Below are positions 533 to 64,000 of a stretch of DNA of 64,000 bases, one piece after another. Both the position numbers and the translations under genes were made by a program. Origin of the DNA: Clostridia bacterium (GTDB taxonomy: Bacteria; Bacillota; Clostridia; Oscillospirales; CAG-382); NCBI GenBank assembly GCA_017620655.1, contig JAGAUT010000034.1:2334-66333 (forward strand), given 5' to 3'. The notes under the pieces are model-generated. The model did no database searches and was not told the DNA's origin. It saw nothing but the letters and a program-made list of their open reading frames with translations. Positions within the stretch are counted from its first letter, which is position 1, and every line of letters starts with the position of its first letter.

Positions 533-665
533 TACAAAAATCCCTTGCATCGGTGTTTGATGCAAGGGATTAGTTATTTACGCGGTTGATATAGTTTGTT
601 TACGATTTAATCTGCCCCGCGAACTGGTCAGCGCGGACTCCGCGCCTGCGAAATTTGCAGCGGTG
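533..665 (-). repeat. Post-stop-codon structured repeat, family A, copy 1
   Basis: After the mgsA stop: GC hairpins, then TTCGCGGGGCAG...CGCGTAAATAAC, then a 13-bp stem (539-551/559-571) with loop AAACACC; homologous to 19599-19703 and 25265-25375. Confidence 0.8.
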
Positions 666-667
666 CT

Positions 668-1078
668 TCACCGCTTAGCCTTGGGATTTACAAGATTTCT
701 CCAATCAAGTGTACCCTGGTCAAGGGCAAGGATAAGTGCTTCTGCCGTAGCAATATTTGTGGCAAAAGGTACGTTATATATGTCGCAGAGTCTCAAAATA
801 TTATGCTCTGCTTCCTTGTATTCGGGTGCTGCAATTGTATTTCTGAAGAAAAGAAGAAGGTCTATTTCATTAAAGGCAATTCTTGATGCTATCTGTTCAA
901 TACCGCCCTGCATACCTGTCATAAGACATTCAATCTTAAGACCCGTTGCTTCGGAAATATATTTACCCGTGGCATCTGTTGCACACAGTTCGTGTTTACA
1001 CAAAATACCCTGATATGCAATACAGAATTCCGCGATGAGTTCTTTTTTTGTGTCTGATGCTATGATTGCTATTTCCAT
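668..1078 (-). CDS. mgsA: Methylglyoxal synthase-like protein (active-site residues degenerate)
   Basis: MGS-type sequence (IAII...KKELIAEFCIAY, ATG, EIDLLLFFR, LLRLCD-like ILRLCDIYNVPFATNIATAE); start may be TTG at 1087. Confidence 0.85.
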   Translation of the reverse strand: MEIAIIASDTKKELIAEFCIAYQGILCKHELCATDATGKYISEATGLKIECLMTGMQGGIEQIASRIAFNEIDLLLFFRNTIAAPEYKEAEHNILRLCDIYNVPFATNIATAEALILALDQGTLDWRNLVNPKAKR

Positions 1079-1169
1079 ATAAACCAATCAATCCTTTCTC
1101 TTTTATTGTATTCGATTAACCACGGTAAAACACCGCCGCACTAATTCCTGATTTATAACGCACTCCGTT

Positions 1170-19489: not shown

Positions 19490-19512
19490 CGGTATTACAG
19501 GTATAAACAATA

Positions 19513-19543
19513 ATCCCTTGCGCCGTCGTTTGGCGCAAGGGAT
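19513..19543. repeat. Isolated AAACNNC-loop hairpin of family A
   Basis: atcccttgcgcc-gtcgttt-ggcgcaagggat. Confidence 0.75.
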
Positions 19544-19598
19544 GGATAACCGAGAAATAAAAATATAGATTATCTCCGACAATTCGTCGGTGTAGCAA

Positions 19599-19703
19599 TT
19601 TTCCCGATGTCGTTGTTTGACATCGGGAAAAAGTTATTTATGCGATTAATAAAATTTGCTTATTGAAAGCACTGCCCGCGAAAATGCCGGCGGGTGCTAC
19701 CCG
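19599..19703 (-). repeat. Post-stop-codon structured repeat, family A, copy 2
   Basis: After the pheT stop: gcggg-tagca-cccgc, TTTTCGCGGGCAG, GCAAATT, CGCATAAATAAC, 13-bp stem with loop AAACAAC. Confidence 0.8.
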
Positions 19704-22094
19704 CTAACCTCTTAAAGTAATTCCAAGGTCAAATTCAAGACCCTTAAGAATCTTGGCAACTGCCTTATCGCATTCTTCAACGGAAAGTGTCTTTTCAGGG
19801 CTTCTGAGAACAAGGTTATAAGCCATGGACTTCTTGCCTACGCCTACCTTTTCTTCGTCCTCGAAGATATCAAATACTTCAACAGATTCGAGAAGCTTTC
19901 CGCCGTACTTCTTGATAGCCTTCTTGATTTCGCCGGATGTAAGTGCCTTATCGCATACAAATGCAAGGTCACGTTCAGATGAGGGGAACTTGGGAAGTGC
20001 CTTATAGTGCTTATCGAAGTTCTGCATTGTCATCATAAGCTCTGTATCGCATACGATAACATAGCTTTCAATATCAAGTCCGTAGTTTTCCTGAACTGTG
20101 GGATGAAGCTGACCGAATACGATAAGTCTCTGTCCGTCACGGCTGACAACACTTGCACATCTTCCGGGGTGGAATGCAGGAGCTTCTGTGTTGGGTACAA
20201 AATCGTAACCCTTGATACCGAGAAGGTCGAGAATGTTTTCGCAAACACCCTTCATGTCATAGAAGTCTACGTCGCCGTATGCCGCGATTACCGTTGACAT
20301 ACGTTCGTCGGGCTGATCTTCGCCTTCCTTTGTGATATAAACCTTTGCGTTTTCATAAATCCTAGCATTCTTGTTTCTGTATCTTCTGTTTGTTGCGAGC
20401 ACTTCAAGAACGCGGGGAACTGCGGTTGTTCTCATGATGCTGGTGTCTTCACCGAGGGGCTTTGAAATAACTACAGACTTACGAAGAGGAGAATCTGCCG
20501 GCATACAAATATTATCGTAGTACTTGGGGCTGATGAAGGAGAAGGTCTGCACTTCATAGTAGCCCTCGCCTGTAAGAAGCTCATCAATAAGCTTTAAGCT
20601 GTTCTGCTTTGCATTGCGTCTTCCGACAAGTGCCTCTGCCTTGAAGTTTGTTGTGGGAATGAGGTCATAGCCGTGGATACGGATAACTTCTTCTGCAATA
20701 TCCTGCATACATTCAAGGTCTGCTCTGTATGACGGAGGATAAAGAACACCGTCTACAAGTTCAATTTCAAGCTTCTTGAAAATTGCTTTCATTTCTTCTT
20801 CGGCAACATCTGTGCCAAGGAATGCGTTAATCTTGTCTGCATCAAAAGGAATTGCATTTTTTGCCGGCTTTTCGGGATATACATCGATGATTCCCTTTAC
20901 AACTTCACCGGCACCGAGAAGTTCGATAAGTTCGCAGGCTCTCTCAATTGCACCAAGTGTGTTTTCGGGGTCAAGTCCCTTTTCATATCTGCCGGATGCT
21001 TCTGTACGAAGACCGATTGCCTTTGCCGTAAGTCTTACGGAAGGACCGTTGAAGTTTGCACTTTCAAATACTATTGTCTTGGTATTATCATTGATTTCGC
21101 TGTTTTCGCCGCCCATTACACCTGCAACCGCAACTGCCTTATCAGCGTCTGCAATAACAAGCATTTCTTCTGAAAGCTGTCTTTCGATGCTGTCAAGAGT
21201 TGTAATCTTTTCGTCCTTTTCGGCGTGTCTTACAACAATCTTTGAGCCACCGAGGAAGGATGCATCAAATGCATGCATAGGCTGACCGTATTCGAGACAA
21301 ACGTAGTTTGTGATATCTACGATGTTATTGATGGGTCTTATGCCGCAAGCGCGAAGTCTTGAACGCAACCACTTGGGAGAGGGCTCAATCTTTACATTTT
21401 CAACAACTCTTGCTGTGTATCTAGGGCAGAGCTTTGAGTCGAGAACCTCAACGCTGATATAGTCATTAATCGTCTTGCCGTTATCAGTTTCTTTTACAAC
21501 AGGTGTGGGAATTGTAACATCTGTATCAAAAGATGCCGCAGTTTCTCTTGCAAGACCAATCATGGAAAGACAGTCGGGACGGTTGGATGTAATTTCAAAT
21601 TCAACAGTCACGTCATCAAGTCCGAGAACCTTACAAATATCGTCGCCGGGCTTGCAGTCTTCCTGAAGAAGGAAAATACCGTCTTCTTCTGCATAGGGGA
21701 AATCATGCTTATCGAGACCGAGTTCGCCGAGTGAACAGAGCATACCGTTGGAGGGAACTCCTCTGAGCTTACCTGCCTTGATATGAACACCGCCGGGAAG
21801 GTAAGAATCGTGAAGCGCCGCAGGAACAAGCTCGCCTGGCTTTACATTCTGTGCACCTGTAACAATCTGTACGGGTTCTTCCGCACCGATATCAACCATA
21901 CAGATGAGAAGATGGTCAGAATCGGGATGCTTTTCAACGGTAATAAGCTTACCTACTACTACATTTTTGATTTCATCGGCAGGACATTCGTAGCCTTCTA
22001 CCTTTGAGCCTGTCATTGTAAGCTTATCGGAGTAAGCCTTGGGGTCAAAGTCTTCTTTTACATAGTCCTTTAACCAGTTCATTGATAATTTCAT
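19704..22094 (-). CDS. pheT: Phenylalanine--tRNA ligase beta subunit
   Basis: 796 aa; EITSNRPDCLS, NNIVDITNY, RYEKG, C-terminal FDX-ACB domain. Confidence 0.97.
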   Translation of the reverse strand: MKLSMNWLKDYVKEDFDPKAYSDKLTMTGSKVEGYECPADEIKNVVVGKLITVEKHPDSDHLLICMVDIGAEEPVQIVTGAQNVKPGELVPAALHDSYLPGGVHIKAGKLRGVPSNGMLCSLGELGLDKHDFPYAEEDGIFLLQEDCKPGDDICKVLGLDDVTVEFEITSNRPDCLSMIGLARETAASFDTDVTIPTPVVKETDNGKTINDYISVEVLDSKLCPRYTARVVENVKIEPSPKWLRSRLRACGIRPINNIVDITNYVCLEYGQPMHAFDASFLGGSKIVVRHAEKDEKITTLDSIERQLSEEMLVIADADKAVAVAGVMGGENSEINDNTKTIVFESANFNGPSVRLTAKAIGLRTEASGRYEKGLDPENTLGAIERACELIELLGAGEVVKGIIDVYPEKPAKNAIPFDADKINAFLGTDVAEEEMKAIFKKLEIELVDGVLYPPSYRADLECMQDIAEEVIRIHGYDLIPTTNFKAEALVGRRNAKQNSLKLIDELLTGEGYYEVQTFSFISPKYYDNICMPADSPLRKSVVISKPLGEDTSIMRTTAVPRVLEVLATNRRYRNKNARIYENAKVYITKEGEDQPDERMSTVIAAYGDVDFYDMKGVCENILDLLGIKGYDFVPNTEAPAFHPGRCASVVSRDGQRLIVFGQLHPTVQENYGLDIESYVIVCDTELMMTMQNFDKHYKALPKFPSSERDLAFVCDKALTSGEIKKAIKKYGGKLLESVEVFDIFEDEEKVGVGKKSMAYNLVLRSPEKTLSVEECDKAVAKILKGLEFDLGITLRG

Positions 22095-23164: not shown

Positions 23165-23414
23165 AAAAAATCCCCTACGGCTTTCACCGTAAGGGACGTT
23201 ATATTACGCGGTACCACCCTTGTTTCCGACAAATATCGGACACCTCTTTGCATACACTTCATATGCTCTGTCTGTAACGGGACACACCGTCATATCCTTT
23301 AAGATATGCCGCTCCAAAGCGAAACGCAATTTCCACAACCTTTAGGACTTTCCAGCTTACGTCCCTCTCTGCCAAAGGTTTACATGGAAACGCACTCTTT
23401 TTCAACGCGTTTAC
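23165..23414 (-). promoter_or_regulatory. T-box riboswitch (Phe) upstream of pheST
   Basis: T-box AAGGGTGGTACCGCG (23221-23207); terminator 23196-23165; AGAGA and GCTGGAAA stem I motifs; probable UUC specifier at 23323-23321; promoter TTGCAA-17-TATACT. Confidence 0.92.
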
Positions 23415-25021: not shown

Positions 25022-25264
25022 ATGGATAAAGAAATGCAGAAGCCTTTCCGCGCTAAGAGAAAGAAGAAGATTTGTAATTTCTGCGCAGAAAAGTCTGAAT
25101 TCATCGATTACAAGGATGTTCTCAAGCTTCGCAAGTATGTTTCTGAAAGAAGCAAGATTCTTCCCAGAAGAATTACAGGTACTTGCGCTAAGCACCAGAG
25201 AGAACTCACAATCGCTATAAAGAGAGCTAGACACATTGCTCTTATGCCCTACATCAGCGACTAG
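25022..25264 (+). CDS. rpsR: 30S ribosomal protein S18
   Basis: CNFC...IDYKD...[16 protein letters not shown] (Zn-binding form). Confidence 0.97.
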
Positions 25265-25375
25265 TCGGGAAAGCCCGACAGCAGTACGCCGGGCAGTATT
25301 TGCGATTAGCAAATCTTGATTTTCGCATAAATAACCAATCCCTTGCACCAAACACCGGCGCAAGGGATTTTTGTA
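25265..25375 (+). repeat. Post-stop-codon structured repeat, family A, copy 3
   Basis: gtcggg-aaag-cccgac, CGCCGGGCAG, GCAAATC, CGCATAAATAAC, stem 25337-25349/25357-25369 with loop AAACACC. Confidence 0.8.
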
Positions 25376-25523
25376 GCGAGTCGCGGTTGGCAAACTAATC
25401 GCCAGCGGCATATTGGTGATTTTCTATTGCCATTTTCGCGGGAATTATCTTTTTTTACAAGCGGTCAGACTCCATGACAAAAATTACTCCCTCATACCGC
25501 AATTGGTATGAGGGATATTTGCT

Positions 25524-25930: not shown

Positions 25931-25973
25931 AGGATTATAATAGCACATTTTTTATATTGTGTCAAGATAAGAA

Positions 25974-26006
25974 ATTCGCCCATGTCGTAGTTTGACATGG
26001 GCGAAT
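25974..26006. repeat. AAACNNC-loop hairpin (probable terminator of the MBOAT operon)
   Basis: attcgcccatgtc-gtagttt-gacatgggcgaat. Confidence 0.7.
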
Positions 26007-26070
26007 CATAATAATTGTGAATATAACAATAGTTTCGCAACATAGAAAATGGCTGTGCGAAATTATTTTC

Positions 26071-26109
26071 TCTTTGCTTACTTTCTCTTTTTATCAAAGA
26101 GAAAGTAAG
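26071..26109. repeat. REP-like TACTTTCT/AGAAAGTA hairpin, family D
   Basis: tctttg-cttactttctcttt-ttatc-aaagagaaagtaag; related copy at 49052-49082. Confidence 0.65.
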
Positions 26110-27231
26110 TCAGCGGGTGCTGCCTGCAAAATCCTTAAGCGCTCTGCCACCGTTGATGATACCTGTTGAATAAAGGAAAAGAACATCGGCATCGTCTCCA
26201 AAGCCGGAAATCTGCTTGATAAAATCGGGGACAATATAGCGAAGGTCAACAAATGTTACCTTCTTATATCCCATAGCAAGAAGCGGTGCGATGCTGGAGC
26301 CAAAGGAGTCTCTGAACACAACGAGCTCTTTGCCGTTTGTCGCATTCGGGTTTTCGATTATGACAAGATGCTGTGCACCTGCCGCAAACATATCATAGGG
26401 GTCATTGTTCTTAAACATATCGGTAACATACACGGGGTATTCGTGTCTCTTTCCCATGTCATCAATCACCGTCATGACCATATTATCCGTCACATCATTT
26501 GAAAGGTACTTTATCTCATCGGGGCTGAGGCTGAGTGCCGACTGACCGTAGTACACACCGTAAAAAGGAGAAAGGGTGTTTGTCTTCCACTCTGTATCAA
26601 AAACATGTGCACTCGGATTCATCGACGAAACAAGCTTATCAGCAACGCCGAGGATTTTATCCTGACTCCAATGAGAGTCGGTTTTATAATAGTCGGAAAG
26701 GCTGAGCTTATCTGTTATATCGATATATTCCATGCCCGAAAGTCCGTCATGCACCAAAGTGAAAAGCTTGTCGTAATCCATGGCGGGATATCCGTTTTCC
26801 TTTGAAGCATAATAATGCTTATCGGGGACAATGGAGTAATAAACCTTATCGTCTGAAAAATACTTATCCACAACCTTGTTTACAAGGTCAACGGTATACT
26901 GTACCTGAGCTTCGTCCAGCTTTTCTTCAATCTTTATAACGGTTCCGTCCTGAACATAAATGTCATTGTTATCGTTCTTCTTAAGAACATCCATAAAAGC
27001 AAACGCCTTGAGACTTCTGAAAGAATCACGAAGCGGAAACTGGTCGAGAAAATATCCTTCGATTTCATCGAATATATGTGTATCGTTCTCTTTAAGCGAC
27101 TGCATTGTCGCAAGTGGACGGCGTTCGGATTTGGATATCGTCTTTTCAGGTGACAGGAAAAGCATGAGAGAAAGAGTAAGAATAACAAGGCAGAAAACAA
27201 CTGCATTTGAAATAAGTCTTATTTTTTTCAT
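26110..27231 (-). CDS. DHHW family (AlgJ/AlgX-like) extracellular protein
   Basis: N-terminal TM, SERRPLA, DQFPLRD, YKTDSHW, FRDSFGSS, DLRY. Confidence 0.85.
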   Translation of the reverse strand: MKKIRLISNAVVFCLVILTLSLMLFLSPEKTISKSERRPLATMQSLKENDTHIFDEIEGYFLDQFPLRDSFRSLKAFAFMDVLKKNDNNDIYVQDGTVIKIEEKLDEAQVQYTVDLVNKVVDKYFSDDKVYYSIVPDKHYYASKENGYPAMDYDKLFTLVHDGLSGMEYIDITDKLSLSDYYKTDSHWSQDKILGVADKLVSSMNPSAHVFDTEWKTNTLSPFYGVYYGQSALSLSPDEIKYLSNDVTDNMVMTVIDDMGKRHEYPVYVTDMFKNNDPYDMFAAGAQHLVIIENPNATNGKELVVFRDSFGSSIAPLLAMGYKKVTFVDLRYIVPDFIKQISGFGDDADVLFLYSTGIINGGRALKDFAGSTR

Positions 27232-63671: not shown

Positions 63672-63802
63672 TCTGTTTTCTCCTTTTTTAATCACTTTGC
63701 AGCTTACCTTAATGGCAGCAAAGTGACGCCGTCACCTCGTGGCATATCACTTCGGTTAGCAGTTACATACTCCGAAGTTGTCAGTGCGGACTCCGCACCC
63801 GC

Positions 63803-64000
63803 TTACTCTATATTTTGTACCTGTTCGCGGATTTTTTCAACCTCGCTCTTGGCGTCAACAACAACCTTGGCAATATCTGCATCGTTGCACTTGGAGCCTG
63901 TGGTATTAATCTCACGATTGATTTCCTGAAGTAAAAAGTCGAGCTTTCTTCCGCAAGGCTCATTGCCTGTTTCTTTGATAATCCTTGTAAACTGGTCAAT
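63803..64000 (-). CDS. yicC: YicC/YloC family endoribonuclease, 3' end only
   Basis: Translated by hand: ...GRKLDFLLQEINREINTTGSKC...EKIREQVQNIE*; truncated by the window edge and absent from the ORF track. Confidence 0.93.
   Translation of the reverse strand: MDQFTRIIKETGNEPCGRKLDFLLQEINREINTTGSKCNDADIAKVVVDAKSEVEKIREQVQNIE

Follow-up and report, generated by a model that had tools for sequence, protein, structure and literature searches.

Three stretches of the 64-kb window analysed here (the whole stretch, C63:2334-66333 of the draft genome G000; 2.2 Mb, 95 contigs, 42.7% GC), found near the ends of mgsA, pheT and rpsR, are subfamily-A members of an undescribed three-hairpin repeat of about 110 nt that is present in roughly 150 copies in this genome. 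It is a mosaic interspersed repeat of the same kind as bacterial interspersed mosaic elements (BIMEs) and BOX elements, and its one truly odd feature is the register it keeps with stop codons. We think it likely that the family is a lineage-restricted, non-coding BIME/BOX-like repeat whose orientation has been filtered by terminator polarity. Copies in the window are numbered by window position below, and copies elsewhere in the genome by contig.

A preliminary description of the window had reported these three copies, all in sense orientation, and a series of elements recurring in the same order after the mgsA, pheT and rpsR stops. Reading all three sites bears out both the positions and the order. 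In the direction of the upstream gene, a GC mini-hairpin is followed by a linker (xGRCAx) and (T)CGC(G/C)GGGCAG, then by about 30 AT-rich bases with a small hairpin, CGC(A/G)TAAATAAC and a 13-bp hairpin. The motif CGCRTAAATAAC occurs three times exactly and once with a single mismatch in the window, against an expectation of 0.6, and the hairpin ATCCCTTGC..GCAAGGGAT occurs three times, against an expectation of 0. A covariance model of the family (R1; cut-off E<=0.01) scores the three copies at 84.9-107.2 bits.

The same model finds 145 matches in G000, the best at 109 bits, while an nhmmer search with a hidden Markov model (HMM) built from 41 full copies returns 162, of which 76 are full length. 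Together the copies make up about 0.7% of the genome. The unit consists, in order, of P1 (a GC mini-hairpin of 5-6 bp), TGRCAA, CGCGGG (subfamily A) or CACGGGG (subfamily B), P2 (a weak, variable hairpin), an A-rich block (GTCGCnnAAnnAAC) and P3 (a near-perfect 13-bp palindrome with a conserved loop). Subfamily A (TCGCGGGCAG ... ATCGCrTAAATAAC) accounts for 22 of the 76 full copies, including all three main window copies, and subfamily B (CACGGGG ... GGTGTCGCTTAAATAAC) for 45. P3 comes in two types, i with the loop (T)CAAACrCCGA and ii with GACCGCCATAAATCCAAGCGGTC, which are common to several families.

Several features place the family among the mosaic repeats: 145-162 extragenic copies, modules that recombine, extra P1 modules and arrays. 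Small GC hairpins of a few sequence types, each followed by TGRCAA, recur dozens of times in G000 (for example GCGGCGAGTCGCCGC, GTCGGGAAAGCCCGAC, GCGGGTAGCACCCGC and GCGGAGTGCCTCCGC). Direct tandem arrays are frequent, such as the four units at C60:3066-3497 and the five at C89:2706-3312; the 162 HMM matches form 130 same-strand clusters, in which neighbours are mainly direct tandem repeats. Head-to-head pairs are few (C19:2542/2655, C7:1856/1956, C50:27143/27237). The copies are old, with a median pairwise identity of 62% and a nearest-neighbour median of 80%, and pairs at 90% or above are mainly tandem neighbours. The preliminary description's proposal of a BIME-like mosaic repeat thus finds support in the modularity, the swappable 5' modules, the arrays and the lack of an Rfam match. 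Its view that the element is more than a terminator is likewise supported by the ~150 modular copies, the tandem arrays, covariation, and biases in orientation and in position relative to stops.

The P1 type of module is also found in other company. A long palindrome (TTTGTCATTTTGACGG...CCGTCAAAATGACAAA) is bordered by the caps GTCGGGAAAGCCCGAC+AGCAG and GCGGCAAGTTGCCGC+TGACAA, in inverted orientation, at sites on C19 (near 26470 and near the contig end), C40 (~5817), C70 (~13760) and C89 (~17774). This capped palindrome is a different repeat, of a REPIN-like or MITE-like kind (MITE, miniature inverted-repeat transposable element), using the same cap modules.

The stems had been described as varying in sequence yet staying paired, and this holds across the family. 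Covariation was assessed on two alignments, one of 35 copies and a model-guided one of 57 copies that includes four other species, and in both every pair of P1 and P3 covaries (6/6 in P1, which is 93.5% paired, and 13/13 in P3, which is 96% paired). Over the whole structure 81.9% of cells are paired, compared with 58.8% after shuffling and 37-42% when partner columns are slid. P2 is 60% paired, in a variable register and with many G.U pairs. It folds better on the sense than on the antisense strand (49 vs 26 copies, p=1.4e-4; z-scores against shuffles of -0.42 for sense and -0.02 for antisense). P1 and P3 are nearly pure Watson-Crick stems, as expected of DNA palindromes or of hairpins that form on both strands: of 890 P3 pairs 855 are Watson-Crick, 9 G.T and 21 A.C, and of 420 P1 pairs 418 are Watson-Crick and none G.T. 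Two further pairings were considered and set aside. A pseudoknot between the P3 loop and GGTGT was dropped because subfamily A lacks GGTGT yet keeps the loop. Pairing of the conserved GCGGG block (B1) with the 3' arm of P1, as a ribosome-sensing switch, has a constant part of 4 bp and no covariation with the variable part of P1, and we regard it as speculation.

Genome-wide, the copies are biased in orientation. The upstream gene lies on the strand of the unit for 111 matches and on the opposite strand for 46; between tandem genes 70 matches are sense and 22 antisense, and a further 31 matches lie between convergent genes. About 80% of copies are co-oriented with the upstream gene whichever strand is replicated as leading: judged by GC skew, co-orientation is seen at 47/58 sites (81%) with a leading-strand upstream gene and at 21/27 (78%) with a lagging-strand one. 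Since these proportions are alike, orientation follows transcription and not replication.

We suggest that the polarity of the last hairpin accounts for this bias, a point the preliminary description had overlooked: the hairpin, as judged from its flanks, resembles a terminator chiefly when the opposite strand is read. There, the A-rich block becomes GTTATTTA and places a U-rich tract behind P3, so that P3 with its A-rich block looks like a terminator mainly of antisense transcription. Among the 76 full copies, a T-tract (at least 5 T in 8) follows P3 on the antisense strand in 49 and on the sense strand in 12, including 11/22 subfamily-A copies and 0/45 of subfamily B. In all three window copies a terminator scan flags P3 on the antisense strand; only at the mgsA copy does it flag the sense strand too. 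The T-run said to follow the 13-bp hairpin is present in the mgsA and rpsR copies; the pheT copy lacks it, reading AAAATTGC, and its sense terminator is predicted further on, at 19513-19543. Copies with a sense T-run are also more often found between convergent genes (6/11) than the remaining copies (9/56).

Read on the opposite strand, P3 and the A-rich block form a hairpin followed by GUUAUUUA, and most units would terminate only antisense transcription, while those of subfamily A with an added T-run would terminate in both directions. A unit terminating one way would be tolerated within or behind a transcription unit only if that way opposes transcription. Units inserted in reverse within a transcription unit would have polar effects and be eliminated, leaving a sense bias, and bidirectional copies would end up between convergent genes or at operon ends. 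Such a filter would explain both the orientation bias and where subfamily A is found. For the window it predicts that the mgsA copy terminates the MGS-like gene and also a convergent flavin-reductase gene, and that the rpsR copy terminates the rpsR transcript. A promoter within the unit (TGRCAA as -35, CATAAAT as -10) was considered and discarded, as the spacing is unfit and a scan of the window copies flags no conserved promoter.

The model also finds the family in relatives of the source genome, though restricted to certain species in one genus of uncultured Clostridia known from metagenome-assembled genomes (MAGs), several of them from animal guts. Among the genus genomes scored (G001-G013, with up to 63 candidates each), there are at least 63 matches in G005, at least 62 in G008 and at least 59 in G010, with 26 in G009, 8 in G004, 3 in G012, 2 in G013 and 1 in G006; no match was found in five further species (G001, G002, G003, G007 and G011). 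Of 47 genomes outside the genus, two have any match: one from another genus of the same family, with 8, and one from another family, with a single weak match. The remaining genomes sampled from the order have none. Public carriers include 'Oscillospiraceae bacterium SIG639', 'Clostridia bacterium RGIG3854' (roe deer caecum) and MAGs labelled Feifaniaceae, Eubacteriales and Oscillospiraceae. A pattern scan of genome contigs gave mostly chance matches in unrelated phyla, and the covariance model confirmed only 8 loci, all from Clostridia MAGs. Carriage by phages was rejected: pattern matches in viral contigs failed covariance-model confirmation, and blastn against phage GenBank records returned nothing.

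The family matches no described one in Rfam. At the gathering threshold of Rfam 15, a T-box is the only match that passes in the window, and in E-value mode the best match to the pheT copy scores 19 bits against a cutoff of 46. Nor did we find the family in the literature on stop-adjacent repeats in Clostridia and on repetitive extragenic palindromes (REPs) and trans-translation. The observations that the preliminary description named as fatal to its proposal, namely copies without bias or covariation, or a match to a known family, were looked for and not found.

We compared 22 stop-abutting sites in four relatives (G005, G008, G009 and G010), and the pheT site throughout the genus. G000 shares many copies, as orthologs, with G005, G008 or G010. 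There are also clean empty sites. One of them (seg 7) reads TAA, a 117-nt insert and TTGAAAGGAAG in G000 and TAG followed by TTGAAAGGAAG in G010, with no duplication; the flank TTGAAAGG follows the insert in the filled site and the stop directly in the empty one. At other sites modules have been exchanged. A T-type module, consisting of the hairpin CTTACTTTyTCTTT..AAAGArAAAGTAAG and CAAAGAGAAAA, is often present at the same stops in sister species, and in segs 4 and 5 it replaces P1 and TGRCAA while the rest of the unit and P3 stay. The seg 6 unit, flanked by P3-arm copies in inverted orientation, points one way in G000 and G008 and the other way in G005 and G010.

The 3' end of groEL (seg 15; G000 C21:32143, G005 L030, G009 L085) differs in another way: G009 has no R1 match there and carries a terminator, AAATCCGACCGCC..GGCTGTCGGATTT, whose lower stem matches the P3 stem of the G005 unit. 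From such sequences, P3 may sometimes derive from, or fuse with, a native terminator. Unrelated repeats, including GGAATGCGGAGTGCGGAATGAGGAAT-type repeats and GCGGGGCGATACCTCCTCAGTCACC.. units, were also seen at the same stops in sister species, namely at L024 (G005:C13:22135-22614), L029, L047 and further orthologous gene ends in G005, G008 and G010. As these other repeats start at the same stops, the stop-proximal position is a hot spot common to several families.

Orthologous units in G000 and G005 are 88% identical, compared with 74% at third codon positions. At greater distance the order is reversed (76% vs 80% for G008, 67% vs 76% for G010). The selection test on orthologs is thus mixed, and there is at best short-range constraint, or else conversion or replacement.

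The stop-codon register was examined at the 97 loci with an intact 5' end, considering stops of open reading frames (ORFs) of at least 60 codons. At 29 of these (30%) the first hairpin starts with the stop's final base or the base after it (0/+1), compared with 3 that have a gap of 1-2 nt and 14 with the stop 4-40 nt upstream; at 51 no ORF ends within 40 nt. Where the position is +1, the first base of the hairpin completes the stop (TA+G, n=15; TG+A, n=1), and in orthologs from sister species a hairpin base completes it as TA+A. Genome-wide, the first perfect hairpin after stops has a bimodal start position: 63 genes form a peak at -1/0, apart from the mode of ordinary terminators at +4 to +10. 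Sister species retain the register where the unrelated T-type hairpin has taken the place of P1 (segs 2, 4 and 5). At the 22 compared sites, G009 orthologs are mostly empty and mostly have TAA, where G000 uses TAG.

A filter on polarity leaves the 0/+1 register, and its persistence through module swaps, unexplained, and this is the first of several points that weigh against our preferred explanation. Thirteen matches lie between divergent genes, where a terminator has no obvious role, and the gene calls are crude longest-ORF calls. The better folding of P2 on the sense strand hints at some constraint on the sense RNA. Finally, the excess identity of G000-G005 orthologs over third codon positions suggests constraint or gene conversion beyond what a neutral repeat would show.

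Some of these points favour another explanation, in which the unit is a domesticated repeat serving as an RNA cassette in the 3' untranslated region (3'-UTR), coupled to translation termination through a hairpin that stands in register with the stop and is melted by the terminating ribosome. Such a cassette could govern the stability of mRNA 3' ends, the release or rescue of ribosomes, or the access of Rho. It would fit the sharp 0/+1 spike and its separation from the ordinary terminator mode, the sharing of the third stop base, the TAA of the empty G009 sites, the survival of the register when P1 gives way to the T-type hairpin, and an orientation that tracks transcription and not replication, as well as the folding bias of P2 and the conservation between G000 and G005. 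However, just over half of the loci have no ORF end nearby, tandem arrays and head-to-head pairs exist, the nearly pure Watson-Crick pairing of P1 and P3 would be less usual in an RNA acting on one strand than in DNA palindromes or bidirectional hairpins, and distant orthologs diverge faster than third codon positions. We therefore hold this explanation to be possible but doubtful.

Closely related is the broader idea that these are gene-end cassettes selected for the exact register between hairpin and stop, either through a function at the terminating ribosome or through an insertion process that homes to stops in sense orientation; this too we put forward only tentatively. Candidate functions would be to control how ribosomes are released or rescued, to protect the stop codon or to keep Rho out. 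The nearest precedent is that of E. coli REPs within 15 nt of stops, which reportedly stall ribosomes and trigger trans-translation, and a hairpin within the footprint of the terminating ribosome might have a real function here, although we would not expect it. We know of no precedent, at such precision, for either a ribosome-coupled register function or insertion homing to stops.

Small GC-rich palindromes with fixed flanking bases, in high copy number, with stems that vary freely and contain very few wobble pairs, also bring to mind the remnants of single-stranded DNA transposons of the REP/REPIN-RAYT or IS200/IS605 (PATE) type, in which the hairpins would serve a transposase as recognition sites and orientation would arise from insertion into one replication strand. 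The P1 caps that flank the unrelated long palindrome in inverted orientation are REPIN-like as well. We consider such an origin unlikely, as co-orientation with the upstream gene is alike on leading and lagging strands, neighbours are mainly direct tandem repeats and not inverted doublets, and the bases before P1 are not conserved away from stops. There are also no near-identical dispersed copies, the nearest-neighbour median being 80%. The transposase domain Y1_Tnp (PF01797) was not found in the copy-rich G005, G008 and G010, is present in the copy-poor G013, G003 and G001, and occurs once in G000 (C12:48022-48378), with no adjoining unit. This distribution, with the strand-independent orientation, speaks against an identity with RAYT or IS200 elements. 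A MITE was rejected too: the 5' end (the GCGG hairpin) and the 3' end (P3 and its tail) are not inverted copies of each other, and seg 7 has no target duplication.

The preliminary description had also offered a 3'-UTR-derived small RNA (sRNA) family or a protein-binding stability element on highly expressed mRNAs. Neither is favoured as the primary explanation, because copies are found behind genes of every sort, occur in tandem arrays and give way to unrelated modules in sister species. Independent sRNA genes, or processed 3'-UTR sRNAs acting in trans, would account for single-stranded blocks conserved between covarying hairpins and for the predicted terminator at the end of subfamily A. Yet no conserved promoter precedes the window units, the majority subfamily B has no sense terminator, some 150 diverged copies with tandem arrays fit poorly, and Rfam holds no match, which makes this quite improbable. 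Ordinary intrinsic terminators alike by chance or convergence, for which P3 and its T-run at the ends of two of the three genes might speak, are a negligible prospect: about 75 nt of ordered, conserved sequence lie upstream of the hairpin, and the explanation is refuted by motif counts far above shuffled expectation and by 145 covariance-model matches of up to 109 bits in G000, with none in most relatives.

We now return to the individual copies in the window, whose neighbours by Pfam are an MGS-like gene (PF02142), the C-terminus of PheT, S18 (PF01084) and a YicC-like gene. The first copy (535..645, minus strand, 88.5 bits), 3' of the MGS-like gene, comprises P1 GCGCGGAGTCCGCGC (631-645), the linker TGACCAG (624-630), B1 TTCGCGGGGCAG (612-623), the AT-rich P2 region (585-611), the block B2 CGCGTAAATAAC (573-584), P3 (539-571, flagged as a terminator on both strands) and the T-run (533-538). 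It had been described as directly following the mgsA stop, a point that needs correction. An extra partial 5' module (646..674, minus), made up of the hairpin GCGGTGAAGCACCGC (660-674) and TGCAAATTTCGCAG, precedes the copy, and the true in-frame stop of the MGS-like gene (ORF 668..1087, minus) is the TGA at 668-670, at the stem/loop junction of that extra hairpin; the TAA is out of frame.

The pheT copy (19595..19704, minus, 107.2 bits) does abut its stop: the first G of P1 GCGGGTAGCACCCGC (19690-19704) is the G of the TAG (19704-19706). It continues with CGCGGGCAG (19672-19680), B2 (19633-19644) and P3 (19599-19631), which has no proper sense T-run and is flagged as a terminator only on the plus (antisense) strand. 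Behind it lies a second, degenerate unit (19508..19590, minus, 36 bits), running from ACACCGACG...CGGTTATCC through the hairpin ATCCCTTGCGCC..GGCGCAAGGGAT (19513-19543) to TATTGTTTAT. This hairpin, 60 nt further on, is the predicted sense terminator of pheT; G005 has the same terminator hairpin at its pheT site, but a different element before it. A similar extension module is seen behind some other units, with ACACCGACG..., a variable stretch, C(A/T)CGGTTATCC and a P3-like hairpin with a T-run that would give a sense terminator. Besides 19508-19590 (minus) it occurs at C67:19790, C22:74773 and C70:5557; CACCGAC-like motifs are seen behind 13 of the 76 full copies, and the complete module behind 4. 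The T-box noted above (RF00230, 100.9 bits; 23189-23414, minus) is an ordinary leader upstream of pheS-pheT.

At rpsR, the copy (25264..25373, plus; 84.9 bits over 25265-25373) again shares the G of a TAG stop (25262-25264) with P1 (GTCGGGAAAGCCCGAC, 25264-25279). It is followed by CGCCGGGCAG (25287-25296), P2 with ATTTGC paired to GCAAAT (25298-25314), B2 (25324-25335) and P3 (25337-25369), where the terminator scan flags the antisense strand, and then by TTTTTG. Directly 3' of it, at 25376-25450 (plus), P1- and B1-like fragments (GCGAGTCGCGGTTGGCAAA ... CCATTTTCGCGGGAAT) are probably a decayed second unit. The first module had also been reported after the yicC stop. It is indeed present there, as GTGCGGAGTCCGCAC+TGACAA (63778..63798, minus), 4 nt past the TAA (63803-63805), and it is the only module: the remainder of the unit is absent, and the covariance model finds no match at 63778-63798.

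A related mosaic unit at 25970..26127 (minus, 35.8 bits) starts with a T-type 5' module (CTTACTTTCTCTTTGATAAAAAGAGAAAGTAAG+CAAAGAGAAAA), continues with a TTTCGC..GCGAAA hairpin and ends in the type-i P3 ATTCGCCCATGTCAAACTACGACATGGGCGAAT. Its pyrimidine/purine hairpin (CTTACTTTCTCTTT..AAAGAGAAAGTAAG) is followed by the mirror purine tail CAAAGAGAAAA and preceded by a partial P1, and its core and type-i P3 resemble those of the R1 family.

Small interspersed repeats have received much study in Proteobacteria and pneumococci, but very little in the uncultured Clostridia that are dominant in animal guts. The present family offers a model-searchable example with an orientation apparently set by terminator polarity, module exchange at fixed sites and a stop-locked hairpin. 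If the stop register is functional, it links repeat biology to translation termination and control of mRNA 3' ends; if it reflects insertion, it implies an unrecognised way of finding stop codons. There are practical consequences as well. The units break assemblies, with many copies on short contigs or at contig ends, and annotation pipelines will mistake them for sRNAs or plain terminators.

Among known systems, the BIMEs of E. coli and other Enterobacteria are similar in having hundreds of extragenic copies, in their mosaic of small GC palindromes and fixed linkers, in their arrays, and in their location in 3' UTRs and intercistronic regions, often near stops; E. coli BIMEs are also transcribed with the upstream gene. 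They differ in sequence, with no similarity to the present family, which has direct tandem units instead of alternating REPs and no RAYT association. A three-hairpin unit of 110 nt with a terminator-like last hairpin, the exact 0/+1 register and the Gram-positive-type Clostridia host further distinguish it. The BOX elements of Streptococcus pneumoniae (boxA-boxB(n)-boxC) are likewise modular, non-coding, gene-adjacent Firmicute repeats, with a repeated internal or 5' module, about 100 or more copies, predicted stable RNA folds and no known transposase. By description, they are set apart by sequence and module set, and here the 5' module can be swapped for the unrelated T-type. To our knowledge, BOX elements have not been reported to start at stops or to act as polar terminators.

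Stop-proximal E. coli REPs share with the family a stable GC hairpin right after the stops of many unrelated genes, although here the spacing is far tighter, overlapping the last base of the stop, and the hairpin forms just the opening part of a longer unit. Correia elements (CREE/NEMIS) of Neisseria and MITEs are structured repeats of about 100-150 nt at gene ends, co-transcribed and able to carry terminators or promoters, but their terminal inverted repeats and TA target duplication have no counterpart here. Bidirectional intrinsic terminators resemble P3 with its upstream TAAATAAC, its downstream T-run in subfamily A and its near-perfect Watson-Crick stems. In contrast to these, subfamily B has a U-rich tract on the antisense strand only, the loop is conserved, and the hairpin is embedded in a repeated unit of 110 nt.

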